Below the pieces are notes generated by a model. It had not been told where the DNA came from, searched no databases, and was given only the letters and a program-made list of their open reading frames with translations. Of a stretch of DNA of 64,000 nt, positions 6,094-45,010 are shown piece after piece. Within the stretch, counting starts at the first letter, position 1, and each line of letters opens with the position of its first letter. The translations under genes were made by a program, and so were the position numbers. Origin of the DNA: a virus. Lineage: Duplodnaviria > Caudoviricetes. The DNA lies in the IMG/VR virus record IMGVR_UViG_3300031992_000070, positions 1-64,000 of that record; one strand, given 5' to 3'.

Positions 6094-6479
6094 AACAGGC
6101 TTATCTCAGATTCCCGCGCAACGAATGGGGCGTTGCGGTTGTATATGATTTTGACACGTATCTTGAACATGACGTTATGGTTGAGCAGATGCGTAGTTTC
6201 GGAATGACGATACGCAATGCGGAAAAAGCCTTGAGCATCCTTTCTGGGTACAACACTGGAATGGCCGTGAGCAACGAAACGTTGAAGATGTCGGCAATAT
6301 ACATATCAGATGCTACAAGCGTAGAACAGTGGTGGGACAGTGCCGCTCATGAACTTGCTCATGTAGTAACTGCAATCATTGATGCTTATAATGTACCATA
6401 CGATTCAGAGGATGCTGCCTATCTTTCAGGGTATCTTATGCGCCAGCTTGTAAGAGAGGTTGGCGAACCTTGTCGTTAA
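6090..6479 (+). CDS. Putative HExxH metallopeptidase-like protein
   Basis: AAHELAHVV motif; start at the ATGA overlap at 6090. Confidence 0.55.
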   Translation: MKQAYLRFPRNEWGVAVVYDFDTYLEHDVMVEQMRSFGMTIRNAEKALSILSGYNTGMAVSNETLKMSAIYISDATSVEQWWDSAAHELAHVVTAIIDAYNVPYDSEDAAYLSGYLMRQLVREVGEPCR

Positions 6480-6501: not shown

Positions 6502-6846
6502 ATGGAAAGAGAAAAGCTTTTAGAAGAGTACAAGGTGACACTTGAAAGCCTTGTGTCAAAGACGGAGTTTATTTACAGTGAAGAGTTTTATAAACTTGAC
6601 GAGTTTGATAAGCAAAAGTACAACAAAGACAAGATGACAACTGAGGCACATCTTAGTACACTATGCGAATTGCTTTGGGGTAAGAAGATGCAGTTTGACA
6701 ACGGTCTTGGAAATATGTTCGCACTTGGCATTCTTAGCTCTATGTTCGGTGGTGGATGGGGAAGCCCAAGCACAGGCACGGATTACCTAAAGAAAACTCT
6801 TGAAGAAAACGCGCAAGCAACGGAAATTGAAAATAAAGCCGAATAA
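6502..6846 (+). CDS. Hypothetical protein
   Basis: 114-aa ORF with an A-rich start region. Confidence 0.6.
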   Translation: MEREKLLEEYKVTLESLVSKTEFIYSEEFYKLDEFDKQKYNKDKMTTEAHLSTLCELLWGKKMQFDNGLGNMFALGILSSMFGGGWGSPSTGTDYLKKTLEENAQATEIENKAE

Positions 6847-6911
6847 CCGCATTTCTTTTGTTCGGTGGATAACTATCAAGGAAAGGCAAAGAAAATGCCG
6901 TAGTGGTCTTA

Positions 6912-6945
6912 AAACGGGGTTATACACAAATATATAACCCCGTTT
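6912..6945. terminator. Bidirectional terminator between convergent blocks
   Basis: 13-bp perfect stem AAACGGGGTTATA/TATAACCCCGTTT. Confidence 0.75.
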
Positions 6946-8342: not shown

Positions 8343-8690
8343 CTATAATTCTTTAATCATCTCTACCTCATTTTCATCTCTTGAAAGTTCCTTGAACCCA
8401 AGGCGTTCGTACCATTCACGCAGCCAGATGTTTTTTGCGTCAACATGTAGACGTGCAAATGTCATTCCATAGTCACGGCAGGTGTTGATGGCGTACTGTA
8501 TCATCACCCATCCAAGTCCTTTCTTTCTTTCTGGTTCAAGAACCGAAAGGTCGCAGATATACCCTGTCTTTGGAAACGTCTTTTCGTCAAACTTGACGCA
8601 CACGATAGCCGTTCCGTCATCTTTCACTATGTCAACACTCTTGCCCCAATACCATTGGCATACGTGATATACAAATTCATTTTGTTCCAT
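8343..8690 (-). CDS. GNAT-family acetyltransferase
   Basis: LSVLEPERKKGLGWVM acetyl-CoA motif and WYERLGF. Confidence 0.8.
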   Translation of the reverse strand: MEQNEFVYHVCQWYWGKSVDIVKDDGTAIVCVKFDEKTFPKTGYICDLSVLEPERKKGLGWVMIQYAINTCRDYGMTFARLHVDAKNIWLREWYERLGFKELSRDENEVEMIKEL

Positions 8691-8693
8691 AAA

Positions 8694-9305
8694 TTATATC
8701 TTTTTAGAAAACAATAAAAATACACCTCTAAACTTATAATTCGGATTATCCAATGCTTTATGTATTACATCAAAACTTGAATGAAGTCCTTTTATAGCAG
8801 AAACCAAAGTTGTGAAACTTTCAATATATTCTCCATTGATACTATACTTGTGTACTTCTATTTTAGCACCAAAAGAACCGTTTTTAATTCTGGTGGCAAT
8901 TCTTTTTTCATTTGTTGATTTTTGCCTTGTTGTTCTTGTTATAGCATCCATTGTTAATGGATTGTGAGTATTTTCTTTACATGTACACCACTTTAGATTC
9001 TCAACCCTATTGTCAAACTTGTCGGTATTCAAATGGTCAACACAAGGTTTGTTTTTTGGATTTGGAAGAAATGCTTCTGCAACAAGTCTGTGAACATACA
9101 CTTTCTTAGGTAAAGAATTTTTACGCAAGGAGACGTAATAATATTGCCTTCCAGACGAACATAAAGACAATATCTTTTCTTTTATTAGTCTAAAACCACC
9201 TTTATTGTCGTTTTTTACTAAACGTTCCAAAGATTTAACTCTCCCAAGGCTACTGACTTGGTATAAACCTTCATAACCAACTACGTCTTTCCAAATTTCT
9301 TCCAT
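8694..9305 (-). CDS. NUMOD4-HNH-NUMOD1 homing endonuclease
   Basis: MEEIWKDVVGYEGLYQVSSLGRVKS start; VHRLVA..VDHLN..DNRVENLKW. Confidence 0.85.
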   Translation of the reverse strand: MEEIWKDVVGYEGLYQVSSLGRVKSLERLVKNDNKGGFRLIKEKILSLCSSGRQYYYVSLRKNSLPKKVYVHRLVAEAFLPNPKNKPCVDHLNTDKFDNRVENLKWCTCKENTHNPLTMDAITRTTRQKSTNEKRIATRIKNGSFGAKIEVHKYSINGEYIESFTTLVSAIKGLHSSFDVIHKALDNPNYKFRGVFLLFSKKI

Positions 9306-21062: not shown

Positions 21063-21136
21063 TGGTCTTGGGTGGAATCGAACCACCGATTAACGCCTTT
21101 CGGTAAGCGTTGCTTCATCCAACGAAGTTCAAGACC
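21063..21136 (-). ncRNA. tRNA-like RNA with a 10-nt anticodon loop
   Basis: Acceptor GGTCTTG/CAAGACC, D arm CTTC/GAAG, T arm GGTGG-TTCGATT-CCACC; loop TTACCGAAAG. Confidence 0.7.
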
Positions 21137-21299
21137 AAGTTGCCCCACCGCTGTAGGGCTTAGTTGAATTTTTAAATAATTGTTTAACTTTTAACCATAA
21201 CAATGATACACCCTCACGGGCTTATATACGATGCAAAGTTACAAATAAACTTTGAATATTTCAAAATCCTATAACATAGTTTAAGTTAAAAAACCAAAA

Positions 21300-26600: not shown

Positions 26601-27220
26601 TTTTTCACCTTGCTTTTCAAGCCAAGCAACAGAATCTGTTAAAAGAAATATAGTCTTACTGTCAAGCACATTATTTAGCCTATAATATTCTAAAAAATCA
26701 ATAAGTTCTTTCCTTATCCTCTCATCCTCGCTCTCTGGAACAAAGTCTGCGCATATTCCACGTGCAACTTCAACTGTAATTTTTCCACTATTAACCATCT
26801 CTTGTAGTTTGGCTATAGTGTCTTTATGTAATTTCTTGTAGTCCATAATCACAACAAATTTAATTCATGTAATTTCTCAATCATAGTCACGCAAGCATCA
26901 ACAATGTTGTCTGCTTTAGTATGTAAATCACTTATGTGTGGATATGTAATATAGTTGTCATCAAGTGCTATTATTGGTTTACTGCCTTGAATTTCTGGTA
27001 AAATACCAAGCAATGCTGCAAGACTCCAACATCTAATATCGTAGTTAAAATCTTCTTTGCCATCTTTGAACAATGGTGTAGGACAAATAGATTCTACATC
27101 TGGTGGAAAGTAATCATTATCAATCTGACAAAAATAATACATATCTGCACTCTCTATTGGCAGTATCTCTGCCAACTTGCGGCTCTGTTCTAAATCAGTG
27201 TAACTTTTAATTGTTGCCAT
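23632..27220 (-). CDS. Run of small hypothetical ORFs (23632-23874, 24014-24241, 24234-24455, 24460-25098, 25102-25293, 25387-25695, 25829-26044, 26049-26852, 26849-27220)
   Basis: Codirectional, short spacers; modular motifs (EDERIRKELI, EEPVS, WKPSDEQM). Confidence 0.6.
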
Positions 27221-27253
27221 ACTTTATCCTTTCTTTTAATTGTTACTTATTAG

Positions 27254-27379
27254 TGGAGAAAGCAGACTCGAACTGCTATCTTCTGATGGTATGTTATGGG
27301 ATGCCTCCCAATGGCGCAGATTTTTTATGTACAGTCACTGCTATGACCACCAGATGTTCTGCCTTTGAACTATTTCCCC
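27254..27379 (-). ncRNA. tRNA-like RNA with a 55-nt insert in place of the anticodon loop
   Basis: GGGGAAA/TTTCTCC acceptor, TA-GTTC-AAAGGCA-GAAC D arm, TTCGAGT T loop, 9-bp extended anticodon stem. Confidence 0.7.
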
Positions 27380-27458
27380 AAACGCCCCACCGCTGTGAGG
27401 CTAACTGTTATAAAATTCATAAATATGAAAGAATACCCATCGCGGGCTTATATCAAAA

Positions 27459-27716
27459 GTGGCACATTCTGCCAAGGTGTGTTGTTACACCAAAGACGCC
27501 TACGCATTGCGTGAAGGTCATTAACCTTGCTCATTCCTATTTTCCCACAGCTACATCAGAAATGTGCACCATAATTGTATTTTATTCCGTTATCAGGCTT
27601 TATAATCATACAACCGCAAGATACTATTTTCCGTTTTGCCACATGTGGTAGTTCGCGTCACTCTTTAAAAGATGGCTACCTCCAAGCCTACTTTCCTTGT
27701 CTGTAAAACGTGCCAC
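27459..27716 (-). ncRNA. Structured RNA resembling 23S rRNA H42-H44 (GTPase-associated centre) with a 169-nt insertion
   Basis: Own promoter TAAATTTG at 27739-27746; closed by GTGGCAC/GTGCCAC; GTAGGCTTGGAGGTAGCCATCTTTTAAAGAGTG ... GTGTAACAACACACCTTG. Confidence 0.75.
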
Positions 27717-27790
27717 TACATTATCAAAGAACACTTTGCAAATTTACAACTTTAATTTTGAATATTACAAGTTCGTTAGAATAGATTAAC

Positions 27791-43742: not shown

Positions 43743-44384
43743 TTACTTTTTGAGAGCCTTGAACCAACGGCTATCCTTACGGATAACCTTTGTCCATTCG
43801 GGTTTCTGAGCCGTTCCACAATTGATGTAACCTTCGGTTAAAGCCTCGGCTTTGGCGATTGCTTTAGCAACCCTTGCCGTCCATTTGCCGTATTCGGCAC
43901 ACTGAGCCAAACCATCGACAACTACATCCGTAGTTGGGGCAATGTGCTTTTTCTTGTCGAAGTTCTTGTCGGTTTCCGACAAGATAGTGCGCTTTTCGTA
44001 GACCGAAACTCTCGAATAGTCGCCACTCTCCTTGAGAGTGTAGAGGGTGTAGTCCTTGCCACCTACCTCTACGAGGTAAGCAACTGACTTGAACATCATC
44101 GGGTTGTTGTTCTCGTCAATAAGTCCAAAGGACTTACCAATGTTCTTGTCGAAGCAACCATACCAAGCCGTGAAGAAATCGGCTGCCTTAAGAGTTGCTA
44201 AACTCTTAACGTGAACACCGAGGACGTTCATTGCCTTAAGGCAAGCCTTACCCTGAGCATCGTTGATAGGCATTGTAAATGCCTTGGCGGTCTGGTTCCA
44301 AGTGTGGGCAACACTCTTAAGAGTGTTCTTGGCGTTCTTGACGGTGTTGTTCTTGCGTGTGTTGTTACTTTTACGTGTTGTCAT
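43743..44384 (-). CDS. First early-operon protein, hypothetical
   Basis: Real start probably MTTRKSNN at 44384. Confidence 0.65.
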   Translation of the reverse strand: MTTRKSNNTRKNNTVKNAKNTLKSVAHTWNQTAKAFTMPINDAQGKACLKAMNVLGVHVKSLATLKAADFFTAWYGCFDKNIGKSFGLIDENNNPMMFKSVAYLVEVGGKDYTLYTLKESGDYSRVSVYEKRTILSETDKNFDKKKHIAPTTDVVVDGLAQCAEYGKWTARVAKAIAKAEALTEGYINCGTAQKPEWTKVIRKDSRWFKALKK

Positions 44385-44450
44385 AAAATGCGGCTTAACC
44401 GATGTTGCCGTAGGGCTGAAATGATTAATACTCAAAAAACTTGTTTTTTG

Positions 44451-45010
44451 TGGACTTTCGGGAGTCGAACCCGAATCCAATATCGAAGATATTGCGATGT
44501 CCGCCACCAACATCATTGCCGCGATTTTCAATACTCCGTATTGAAGTGCTATCCGTAGAAGCCCTTGCCCCAAATTCATCAATGCTACGCATTGCCAAGT
44601 ATGCCGCGAATTTTGCCTTGGAGACTAATGCTACCTTGCATCAAACCAAAGGTTTGTCGGTATGTTCCTCCCGATTGGCTACTCTAAAGAGTAGTTGCTC
44701 AATCCAAGTCCGCTTTTACGCCAACCCTTTTGGGGTTGCATCTTTGTGAGGTTTCCCTTAAAGGGAAAAATGCTTGTGGCTACCTCACGATGCCTTACTA
44801 CTACGTAGTAACTGGCGGCTCTCTCTCGATGCTTTGCATTTCCGTTTGACACCCCTTTTCCCCTAAAGGGGAAGTGTCGCACCGCTATCGGTTCGGTGGG
44901 TTGTTCAAAATTTCAAAGAAATTTGGGTTGGCTATTCCCGTAGGTTGCTATATCTTTGCCGTAGCGATTAGTGAACCATCAACATCTGACCGCTGTCGTT
45001 TGATGTTGAC
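44451..45010 (-). ncRNA. Long structured leader/ncRNA ending in a tRNA-like T arm and acceptor
   Basis: Promoter GACCTTTG at 45015-45022; many hairpins; TCGGG-TTCGACT-CCCGA-AAGTCC-A at the 3' end. Confidence 0.6.

Follow-up and report, generated by a model that had tools for sequence, protein, structure and literature searches.

Positions 27221 to 27790 of a 64,000-nucleotide stretch of viral DNA form a non-coding gap whose minus strand carries an RNA element resembling the GTPase-associated center (GAC) of 23S rRNA. This stretch, referred to here as the window, is the first 64 kb of the 80,911-bp IMG/VR virus record IMGVR_UViG_3300031992_000070, which CheckV rates as complete. The GAC-like RNA is approximately 260 nt long (27458 to 27717) and lies between a Bacteroidota-type promoter and a duplicated two-hairpin cassette, which is itself followed by a 126-nt tRNA-like RNA. 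The best explanation of the stretch as a whole, and one that we consider reasonably probable, is that it constitutes the cargo-bearing leader of a phage transcription unit. An earlier note on this DNA had proposed that a single transcript without an open reading frame joins these elements and that, together with further tRNA-like RNAs at 21.1, 40.2, and 44.5 kb, they make up a set of translation-apparatus mimics. All the elements named for this transcript are present, but their boundaries had to be redrawn, especially the extent of the GAC mimic. Most relatives of the phage stem from one series of metagenome samples, the series of the window itself; from their sample numbers, these samples are taken to be of rumen or gut origin.

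The GAC-like RNA and its family

The element was identified with a covariance model (R1) built from 22 family sequences, all of them other members, the window sequence being absent from the seed alignment. R1 matches the minus strand of the window at 27465 to 27707 with 68.1 bits and an E value of 8.7e-19, and the match covers model positions 1 to 175 of 175. The GAC mimic described in the earlier note is therefore real, but it is not a short element near 27.68 kb; it extends over about 260 nt, from 27717 to 27458. The hairpins that had been listed separately include parts of this RNA (its insert and the hairpin equivalent to helix 44).

The RNA, all of it read from the minus strand and numbered as in E. 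coli 23S rRNA, opens with an outer stem of 11 bp (27717 to 27707 with 27468 to 27458; inverted repeat I1). This stem is extra to the closing helix P1, the equivalent of the end of helix 42 (H42), which pairs 27703 to 27695 with 27477 to 27469. In P1, CAAGG/CCUUG makes up the inner 5 bp of the 9-bp helix of the model, with one to two mismatches further out. The H43 hairpin (27693 to 27669) carries the loop UUGGAGGUA (27685 to 27677) and leads into the junction UUUAAAGAGU (27668 to 27660). An insert of 166 nt follows (27659 to 27494), closed by GACGC/GCGUC (27659 to 27655 with 27499 to 27495), after which the RNA reads UUUGGUGUAACAACACAC, where the family pattern is YUUUGG and the H44 hairpin. 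In the window this hairpin is GU-GUAACA-AC (27490 to 27481), contained within GGUGUAACAACACACC (approximately 27491 to 27476). The core of the element reads GGCUUGGAGGUAGCCAUCUUUUAAAGAG and resembles positions 1062 to 1089 of E. coli 23S rRNA, and its base triple, U1072 with U1092-A1099, is the second most common state in the family (19 of 68 members).

An exact search for the core matched two other viral contigs. When the four positions that vary in rRNA were left free, at least 119 viral contigs were recovered, two of which are real 23S rRNA. The GAC-mimic family is large, comprising at least 117 viral contigs and, in addition, cultured jumbo phages. The 58-nt GAC core was the only BLAST query that recovered cultured phages from the phage collection, and it did so at unannotated sites in Pectobacterium phage CBB, Xanthomonas phages XacN1 and XaC1, Cronobacter phage GAP32, Yersinia phage fHe-Yen9-04, Serratia phage BF, several Erwinia phages, Acinetobacter phage ME3, Ralstonia phage RSP15, Aeromonas phage 4_4572, and Pseudomonas phage pf16.

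The full architecture of the family was read from copies with tRNA genes on either side. In the 5' to 3' direction it consists of P1, the dinucleotide GA, the H43 hairpin, the junction UUUAAAGAGU, a variable domain, YUUUGG, an H44 hairpin of the form G(C/U)-GUAAYA-(G/A)C, ACAC, and the 3' strand of P1. The variable domain spans 42 to 355 nt, has its own closing helix, and is inserted between positions 1090 and 1091. Among the 22 members of the model, 94% of the proposed pairs are formed, and compensatory changes occur in all nine P1 pairs and in the equivalents of 1058-1080 and 1092-1099. The covariation score is 0.668, compared with 0.19 for shuffles and at most 0.157 for slid controls. The 1092-1099 pair and position 1072 covary (42 members have C.(C-G), 19 have U.(U-A), 5 have U.(U-G), and 2 have C.(U-A)), and this is the base triple of the real GAC tertiary structure. 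In the family alignment (A3), U1060, G1071, A1073, U1082 to A1088, G1093 to A1095, and A1098 are invariant. Position 1067 varies across the family as a whole: 49 members have A there, 18 have G, and C and U are each found in 1. R1 assigns 54.1 bits to E. coli 23S rRNA 1051 to 1108, 70.9 to the XacN1 copy, 54 to that of CBB, and 90.7 to those of contigs L003/L004; the Rfam bacterial large-subunit (LSU) rRNA model aligns the L004 copy to its positions 1085 to 1152 (end of H42, H43, and junction). The family keeps both the nucleotides of the GAC and the covariation of the 1072/(1092-1099) triple, from which a GAC-like fold is inferred.

Across the family, the GAC RNA is tightly linked to tRNA genes. 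A tRNA on the same strand lies within 30 nt in 36 of 69 members and within 500 nt in 52 of 69; the other 17 have no tRNA within 500 nt. Nearly all tRNAs at the family loci (491 of 492) share the strand of the GAC RNA. Because of this same-strand adjacency, the GAC RNA would usually be transcribed with tRNAs, and its release from tRNA arrays by RNase P and RNase Z may be supposed. Contig L004 (regions of interest 6507 to 6931 and 8565 to 9058), a 46-kb viral contig from an unrelated phage, contains 26 tRNAs and a GOLLD RNA (272 bits) located 1.8 kb from the GAC RNA. Its GAC RNA sits between two insert-bearing tRNA-like RNAs that share the acceptor stem AGUCAGG/CCUGACU, the second of which is about 155 nt long with CCA encoded at its end. 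A custom insert-tolerant tRNA finder detected long tRNA-like neighbors in 6 other members of the 69 and none on the opposite strand; the count of 6 is a lower bound, as the finder missed the tRNA-like RNA of the window with its 4-bp T stem.

Several members differ in size or setting. In five long members of about 420 nt (L035, L038, L041, L104, and L114) the insert holds AGUACGAGAGGAGC, in one of them as AGUACGGGAGGAGC, one or two bases off the sarcin-ricin loop consensus AGUACGAGAGGACC. These five therefore combine both rRNA elements of the binding site for GTPase factors, which suggests that the family may imitate this site more broadly; in the insert of the window, no copy of the sarcin-ricin loop was found within 2 mismatches. 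Mini GAC mimics without an insert (…GGCUUGGAGGUAGCCAUCCUUUAAAGAGUGUGUAAYAACU…) occur in the bacterial contigs L166, L173, L176, L177, L180, L183, L188, and L190, several of which are labeled as cyanobacteria, and these mimics have the exact H43 loop variant of the window. The mini mimics of L166, L173, L176, L188, and L190 lie inside dense tRNA arrays, with 8 to 31 tRNAs per 8 kb, and the family is therefore also present in cellular long tRNA arrays. In XacN1 (L153; AP018399, approximately 150.3 to 150.6 kb), the GAC RNA occupies a 360-nt unannotated gap directly downstream of an annotated 2'-5' RNA ligase gene. The GAC region of Paenibacillus phage Pd_22F (L154; MZ092003, approximately 83.9 to 84.1 kb), in a 1.7-kb unannotated gap, has no insert and genuine 23S flanks; it was rejected as a family member because these flanks mark it as a real rRNA fragment.

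The promoter, its cargo, and related loci

The gap of 570 nt is flanked by minus-strand genes for proteins of 298 aa (upstream) and 123 aa (downstream, with its ATG at 27220), neither of which has a Pfam or PHROG family. The proposal that the minus strand runs through the gap without an open reading frame holds up: the sole frame on this strand is a 36-aa GTG frame (27624 to 27734) overlying the conserved RNA core. On the plus strand, a 146-aa frame (27211 to 27651) has no Pfam match. Minimum-free-energy (MFE) folding of the whole gap was uninformative (z = -1.4), and BLAST against the phage collection gave no match to the gap or to its 20-kb surroundings.

Bacteroidota sigma-A-type promoters have the consensus TTTG, 19 to 21 nt, TAnnTTTG. 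On the minus strand at 27770 to 27739, TTG (27770 to 27768, in the context cTTG) is separated by a 21-nt spacer from TAAATTTG (27746 to 27739), the sole TAnnTTTG on this strand of the gap. Promoters of the form TTTG-N17-23-TAnnTTTG are enriched in the window (12 compared with 4.0 expected; none of 100 shuffles reached 12), and the one at 27.7 kb is identical to one at 21.2 kb at 28 of 33 positions (alignment score 36, shuffle maximum 25). As far as can be judged from sequence, the boxes, their spacing, the upstream placement, and the conservation are those of a Bacteroidota sigma-A-type promoter. The start site is predicted to lie a few nucleotides downstream of TAAATTTG, at approximately 27733 to 27728. 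The promoter named in the earlier note, at 27739 to 27746, is thus borne out by its uniqueness in the gap, by the upstream TTG, and by the retention of its block in the four relatives described below.

The two-hairpin leader cassette (27453 to 27384, minus strand) separates the GAC RNA from the tRNA-like RNA. Hairpin A, AUAUAAGCCC-GCGAU-GGGU, spans 27435 to 27453, with the stem-loop GCCC-GCGAU-GGGU at 27447 to 27435, and has a paralogue at 21209 to 21227. Hairpin B, CCUCAC-AGCG-GUGGGG (CCNNACAGCGGTGGGGC), spans 27384 to 27400, ends 4 nt before the 5' end of the tRNA-like RNA, and has a paralogue at 21142 to 21158. The number of matches expected by chance at 21.1 kb is 0.06 for hairpin A and 0.26 for hairpin B, in agreement with the duplication that had been claimed for the cassette. 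At 21.1 kb both hairpins lie between a matching promoter and a tRNA-like RNA of 74 nt, forming a paralogous unit without a GAC RNA (21063 to 21265, minus strand; promoter 21234 to 21265, hairpin A, hairpin B, and tRNA-like RNA 21063 to 21136).

The cassette was also found in six other viral contigs (L155 to L160), where it precedes a tRNA-like RNA of the 21-kb type (L155), one of the insert-bearing 27-kb type (L160 and L159, the latter being the same contig as L026), or other RNAs. Seven aligned copies have invariant loops, compensatory stems, and a conserved 3' trailer, CUAAU.AGUAACAAUUAAAA; in hairpin B the AGCG loop is invariant and the stem alternates between CAC/GUG and CUC/GAG. Hairpin A in the form GCCC-GUGA-GGGU is present in L155 to L160. 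The cassette occurs twice in tandem in L158 (4200 to 4360), and in L156 (approximately 6140 to 6300) and L157 (approximately 1170 to 1330) it stands after the 3' end of a tRNA-like RNA and before a non-tRNA RNA. From these arrangements the cassette appears to punctuate the RNA units of rumen phages in general.

The 126-nt tRNA-like RNA (27254 to 27379, minus strand) matches the Rfam tRNA model (RF00005) with 41.8 bits, above the cut-off of 29, over model positions 1 to 71. The acceptor, D, and T arms and a 5-bp anticodon stem are intact, and 63 nt (27349 to 27287) replace the 7-nt anticodon loop, which agrees with the earlier description of a tRNA scaffold bearing an insert. No CCA is encoded. 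Its MFE fold is a cloverleaf (z = -2.4) in which the anticodon stem is extended by 3 bp, to 8 to 9 bp, and capped by two hairpins. In default mode, ARAGORN called no tRNA anywhere in the window; the Rfam match was missed by a filtered search of the whole window and found in a permissive search of the gap, which otherwise returned only noise. Insert-bearing homologues occupy the same position in L026/L159 and L160 (113 nt; 44.2 bits) and in L191; their acceptor and T stems differ by compensatory changes and their inserts diverge. The 3' trailer CUAAUAAGUAACAAUUAAAA (27234 to 27253, minus strand) is kept after the tRNA-like RNA in L026, L160, L191, and L194, and no terminator-like site was found between this trailer and the 123-aa gene. 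A hairpin of the window insert (27287 to 27349), UGGGAGGCAUCCCAUAAC, resembles GGGGAGGCAUCCCCAUAAC in the variable insert of the GAC RNA of L050 (3788 to 3810); these are the sole two occurrences in 1.4 Mb of loci and represent either a shared module or chance.

Among the other tRNA-like RNAs listed in the earlier note, that at 21.1 kb is supported by the Rfam tRNA model (37.5 bits). Its anticodon arm has 20 nt in place of the usual 17 (AACGCUU-ACCGAA-AGGCGUU; 7 bp and a 6-nt loop), and in its L155 homologue this arm is nearly unchanged, with the loop ACCUAA, and the acceptor stem is a different one with compensated pairs. This RNA appears to be conserved, tRNA-like, and without standard decoding. 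The sites at 40.2 and 44.5 kb did not stand: no Rfam family, tRNA included, was found between 40000 and 44800 at an E value of 5 or less, which leaves the 40.2-kb site unsupported, and the 44.5-kb site has only a T-arm-like motif and a low-confidence call by ARAGORN in intron mode. The proposed set of translation-apparatus mimics thus comprises the GAC mimic and the tRNA-like RNAs at 27.3 and 21.1 kb. At 44449 to 44711 (minus strand), UCGGG-UUCGACU-CCCGA is followed by AAGUCCA, which could pair with GGACUU about 250 nt upstream; the element overlaps the start of a 279-aa frame (43743 to 44582) and has no match in Rfam or in the transfer-messenger RNA (tmRNA) mode of ARAGORN.

Four metagenome contigs (L191 to L194) contain a homologue of the upstream 298-aa gene, with 66 to 78% amino acid identity. 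In all four, the promoter block of about 55 nt (27790 to 27733 in the window) is 80 to 86% identical and stands directly after the stop codon of this gene, and no conservation extends past the predicted start site. What follows the block differs. In L192 and L193 it is the first downstream gene directly; in L194, hairpin A, hairpin B, and a tRNA-like RNA; in L191, hairpins A and B, the homologous insert-bearing tRNA-like RNA, and the same trailer; and in the window, about 290 additional nucleotides holding the GAC RNA and its clamp stem, after which the order is that of L191. In both L191 and L194 hairpin A, as GCCC-GUGA-GGGU, comes directly after the promoter. R1 detected no GAC RNA in these four contigs, in 30 loci with homologues of the downstream gene (L005 to L034), or in nine whole records of relatives, four of them complete, and conserved synteny of the full trio was rejected on this ground.

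Since the relatives hold the unit without it, the GAC RNA of the window is a later insertion, of about 290 nt, that separates the start site from hairpin A. This is seen directly in the comparison: the older unit consisted of promoter, hairpin A, hairpin B, and tRNA-like RNA, and the GAC RNA entered it recently as a module. The nested series also places the cargo between a single conserved promoter and the first gene. Immediately downstream of the promoter (27733 to 27790 in the window, and in L191 to L194) lies a hot spot for exchangeable non-coding cargo; across the five contigs it holds nothing, the cassette with a tRNA-like RNA, or the GAC RNA with both.

The proposed transcript and its alternatives

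In the reading that we prefer, one Bacteroidota-type promoter would drive a single primary transcript containing the GAC RNA, the cassette, the 126-nt tRNA-like RNA, and probably the 123-aa gene. We regard such a transcript as likely. The comparison supports the single transcription unit that had been proposed, as the promoter is kept in four relatives, the cassette and tRNA-like RNA stand directly behind it in two, and no second promoter motif is present in the gap. The claim that the elements co-occur in relatives was upheld for the cassette and tRNA-like RNA, which do so repeatedly, and not for the GAC RNA, which is in no close relative examined. In the window, 79 nt separate the GAC RNA from the tRNA-like RNA, which is the match to the tRNA model nearest to it. 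The L-shaped body of the tRNA-like RNA would offer a handle to host RNase P and RNase Z, whose cuts would release stable RNAs. This RNA cannot decode, and it would most likely act as a scaffold for processing and stability and possibly as a tRNA decoy.

The GAC RNA would rebuild the top of H42, H43, and H44 of 23S rRNA, with the variable domain at 1090/1091. It would most likely bind host uL11 off the ribosome and imitate the stalk base, as a sponge or a decoy for a factor that recognizes this site. uL10 is an unlikely partner because P1 is without the conserved sequence of the H42 kink-turn (K-turn), and the function is unlikely to rest on A1067 because this position is variable in the family and is G in the window. 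A decoy role is plausible because a toxin, Tre23, is proven to attack the GAC, ADP-ribosylating H44 at positions 1095 to 1098 (PMC8661411).

Several points weigh against this interpretation. Real 23S rRNA has A at 1067 and 1070, whereas the H43 loop of the window has G at both, and none of the true 23S genes of 185,579 species genomes contains this exact loop. This loop speaks against any role that depends on A1067, for example, docking of EF-G or of thiostrepton. The case for binding of uL11 is one of conservation only, and the phage encodes no uL11, CCA-adding enzyme, or RtcB. No close relative has all three elements, and the data therefore do not require the GAC RNA and the tRNA-like RNA to be functionally linked. 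Finally, a consensus scan of the minus strand flagged as terminator-like two hairpins that lie after the GAC core and before the tRNA-like RNA, one at 27474 to 27460 and the other formed by hairpin A (27447 to 27435) followed by AUUCUUUCAU, and part of the transcripts could stop there.

A broader possibility, which we consider tentative and rather unlikely, is that the GAC RNA and the non-decoding tRNA-like RNAs form a counter-defense kit of decoy substrates. The folded GAC RNA, perhaps loaded with uL11, would soak up an effector that attacks or senses the factor-binding site of the ribosome; candidates are a Tre23-like ADP-ribosyltransferase and a factor of the stringent response or of abortive infection that reads uL11. 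The tRNA bodies, having no anticodon, would serve as competing substrates for nucleases that target tRNAs, and the RNAs would be exchanged among phages as plug-in modules behind promoters and inside tRNA arrays.

It is about equally doubtful that the region acts only in cis, as a leader in which the hairpins and the tRNA-like RNA, perhaps together with the GAC RNA, process, stabilize, or antiterminate a downstream early mRNA and have no role in trans. Such a leader would account for the same promoter driving the downstream genes directly in L192 and L193, for the continuity from tRNA-like RNA to 123-aa gene without a terminator, and for hairpin A lying at the 5' end predicted for the transcripts of L191, L194, and the 21-kb unit, a position from which it would block 5'-end-dependent decay. 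It does not account for a GAC family that is spread over many unrelated phages, mostly within tRNA arrays and with no conserved downstream gene, or for the conservation in the GAC RNA of nucleotides that belong to the rRNA tertiary fold and are unneeded in a stability element. A cis-acting role could thus hold for the cassette and yet not for the GAC RNA.

Separate transcripts, in which the GAC RNA would end at 27474 to 27460 or at hairpin A and the tRNA-like RNA would arise by read-through or from an unrecognized promoter, are unlikely. The two terminator-like sites would fit this arrangement, as would the AT-rich spacer at 27434 to 27401, which could conceal a non-consensus promoter, for instance, TATTTATG at 27425. 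However, two such sites are within chance expectation (1.2 ± 1.0), and the hairpin at 27474 to 27460 overlaps the 3' strands of P1 and of the 11-bp outer stem. Hairpin A also stands between promoter and tRNA-like RNA in three units that have no other promoter (the 21-kb unit, L191, and L194); because these units, which are without a GAC RNA, depend on that one promoter, hairpin A is not an efficient terminator.

Two alternatives concern the tRNA-like RNA by itself. In intron mode (-i), ARAGORN draws a cloverleaf with anticodon GUC, which together with a tRNA body that is intact and under selection would suit a decoding tRNA-Asp(GUC) with a spliced intron of 56 nt. We judge this very unlikely: the proposed loop has G33 in place of the near-universal U, the homologues in L026 and L160 are called as "tRNA-Stop(UUA)" with a 30-nt intron elsewhere, the insert is much too short for a group I intron, and the splicing ligase RtcB is not encoded. 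An intron-bearing decoding tRNA was accordingly rejected on the basis of G33 and of anticodons that conflict between homologues. Still less credible is a small RNA of the tmRNA kind that would receive alanine by virtue of G3-U70 and have a short tag frame in its insert. The window acceptor stem does contain G3-U70, and a stop-free frame runs from GCA for 15 codons to a UAA inside the insert; against this, L026, L160, and L191 have G2-U71 or G3-C70 instead, the putative peptides are unrelated among homologues, and a 15-codon frame is near chance expectation. This candidate was rejected because the tmRNA mode of ARAGORN finds none in any homologue and no Rfam tmRNA family matches at an E value of 10 or less.

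That the GAC element is a captured, decaying, and functionless fragment of host 23S rRNA, as occurs in phage Pd_22F with its genuine rRNA flanks, is effectively refuted by its own covarying P1, a constant insertion point, and a conserved base triple over at least 69 distinct members, by the lack of any window match to the Rfam bacterial LSU model (RF02541) at the gathering score or at an E value of 10 or less, and by a context that is not that of rRNA, as the flanks are the promoter and the hairpin cassette and H44 lies 166 nt from the junction.

Relation to known RNAs and significance

The cargo-bearing leader that we favor contains an RNA closely comparable to the 23S GAC (end of H42, H43, and H44; E. 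coli 1051 to 1108), the 58-nt domain that binds uL11 and thiostrepton. Both have the H43 stem with its 11-nt loop, the junction UUUAAAGAGU, H44, and a closing helix, as well as the covarying pairs 1058-1080 and 1092-1099 and the triple C.(C-G)/U.(U-A), and a model made only from phage sequences scores the E. coli domain at 54 bits. The phage RNA differs in being free-standing, with its own P1 of variable sequence and no conserved K-turn for uL10, in the domain of 42 to 355 nt between 1090 and 1091 (166 nt in the window), and in the A at 1101 of H44; the window copy differs further in G1067 and G1070.

Mimicry of rRNA is known from the leaders of ribosomal-protein mRNAs, such as the L10 leader (RF00557) and the uL1 site in the rplKA leader (PMC10931766). 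These resemble the phage RNA in imitating, outside the ribosome, a protein-binding site of rRNA. They are, however, cis-regulatory elements of their own mRNAs in cellular genomes and imitate a local motif only, whereas the phage RNA copies a whole tertiary domain, adjoins no ribosomal-protein gene, and has no match to an Rfam leader family.

Like the large and ornate phage-associated RNAs GOLLD and ROOL, which occur beside tRNA genes (RF02032; PMC12286853), the GAC RNA is a phage non-coding RNA without an assigned function that lies within or beside tRNA clusters; unlike them, it is much smaller and is defined by homology to an rRNA domain. The GOLLD and ROOL models of Rfam have no match in the window and show no similarity to the GAC RNA, the GOLLD RNA of L004 being a separate RNA. 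The stable RNAs C and D of phage T4 (species 1 and 2) are likewise non-tRNA stable RNAs in a phage tRNA cluster, cotranscribed with tRNAs and cut by tRNA-processing enzymes, and they are not known to have an established function. T4 is absent from the matches that BLAST gave for the GAC core in the phage collection, and no relationship to RNAs C and D was shown. The tRNA-like RNA of the window shares with tmRNA and the bacterial Y RNA YrlA (PMC4201824) a tRNA body that bears a non-decoding RNA domain. Both tmRNA and YrlA either lack the D or anticodon arm or have the ends of the RNA at other places, whereas the window RNA keeps the full cloverleaf and has only the loop replaced.

The GAC RNA corresponds to no family of Rfam 15, and searches of the full-text literature turned up no description of it; a paper on long bacterial tRNA arrays makes no mention of it (PMC8421152). 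We found no described counterpart of a phage RNA that stands alone, is widely exchanged, and reconstructs an entire functional domain of rRNA. The domain rebuilt here is the docking site of uL11 and the translational GTPases.

The locus also provides a natural before-and-after series in which the GAC RNA behaves as a portable module. Its genomic setting is new, an 81-kb rumen phage without ARAGORN-called tRNAs, where the GAC RNA has its own promoter and an extra clamp stem. The insert-bearing tRNA body is a repeated neighbor, found beside the GAC RNA both here and in the unrelated lineage of L004, with further candidates from the custom motif finder. If the GAC RNA does bind uL11 or a GAC-directed factor, it would represent a new way in which phages interfere with the control of translation or with ribosome-targeting defenses, and its presence in the cultured phages CBB, XacN1, GAP32, RSP15, and pf16 makes this idea directly testable.

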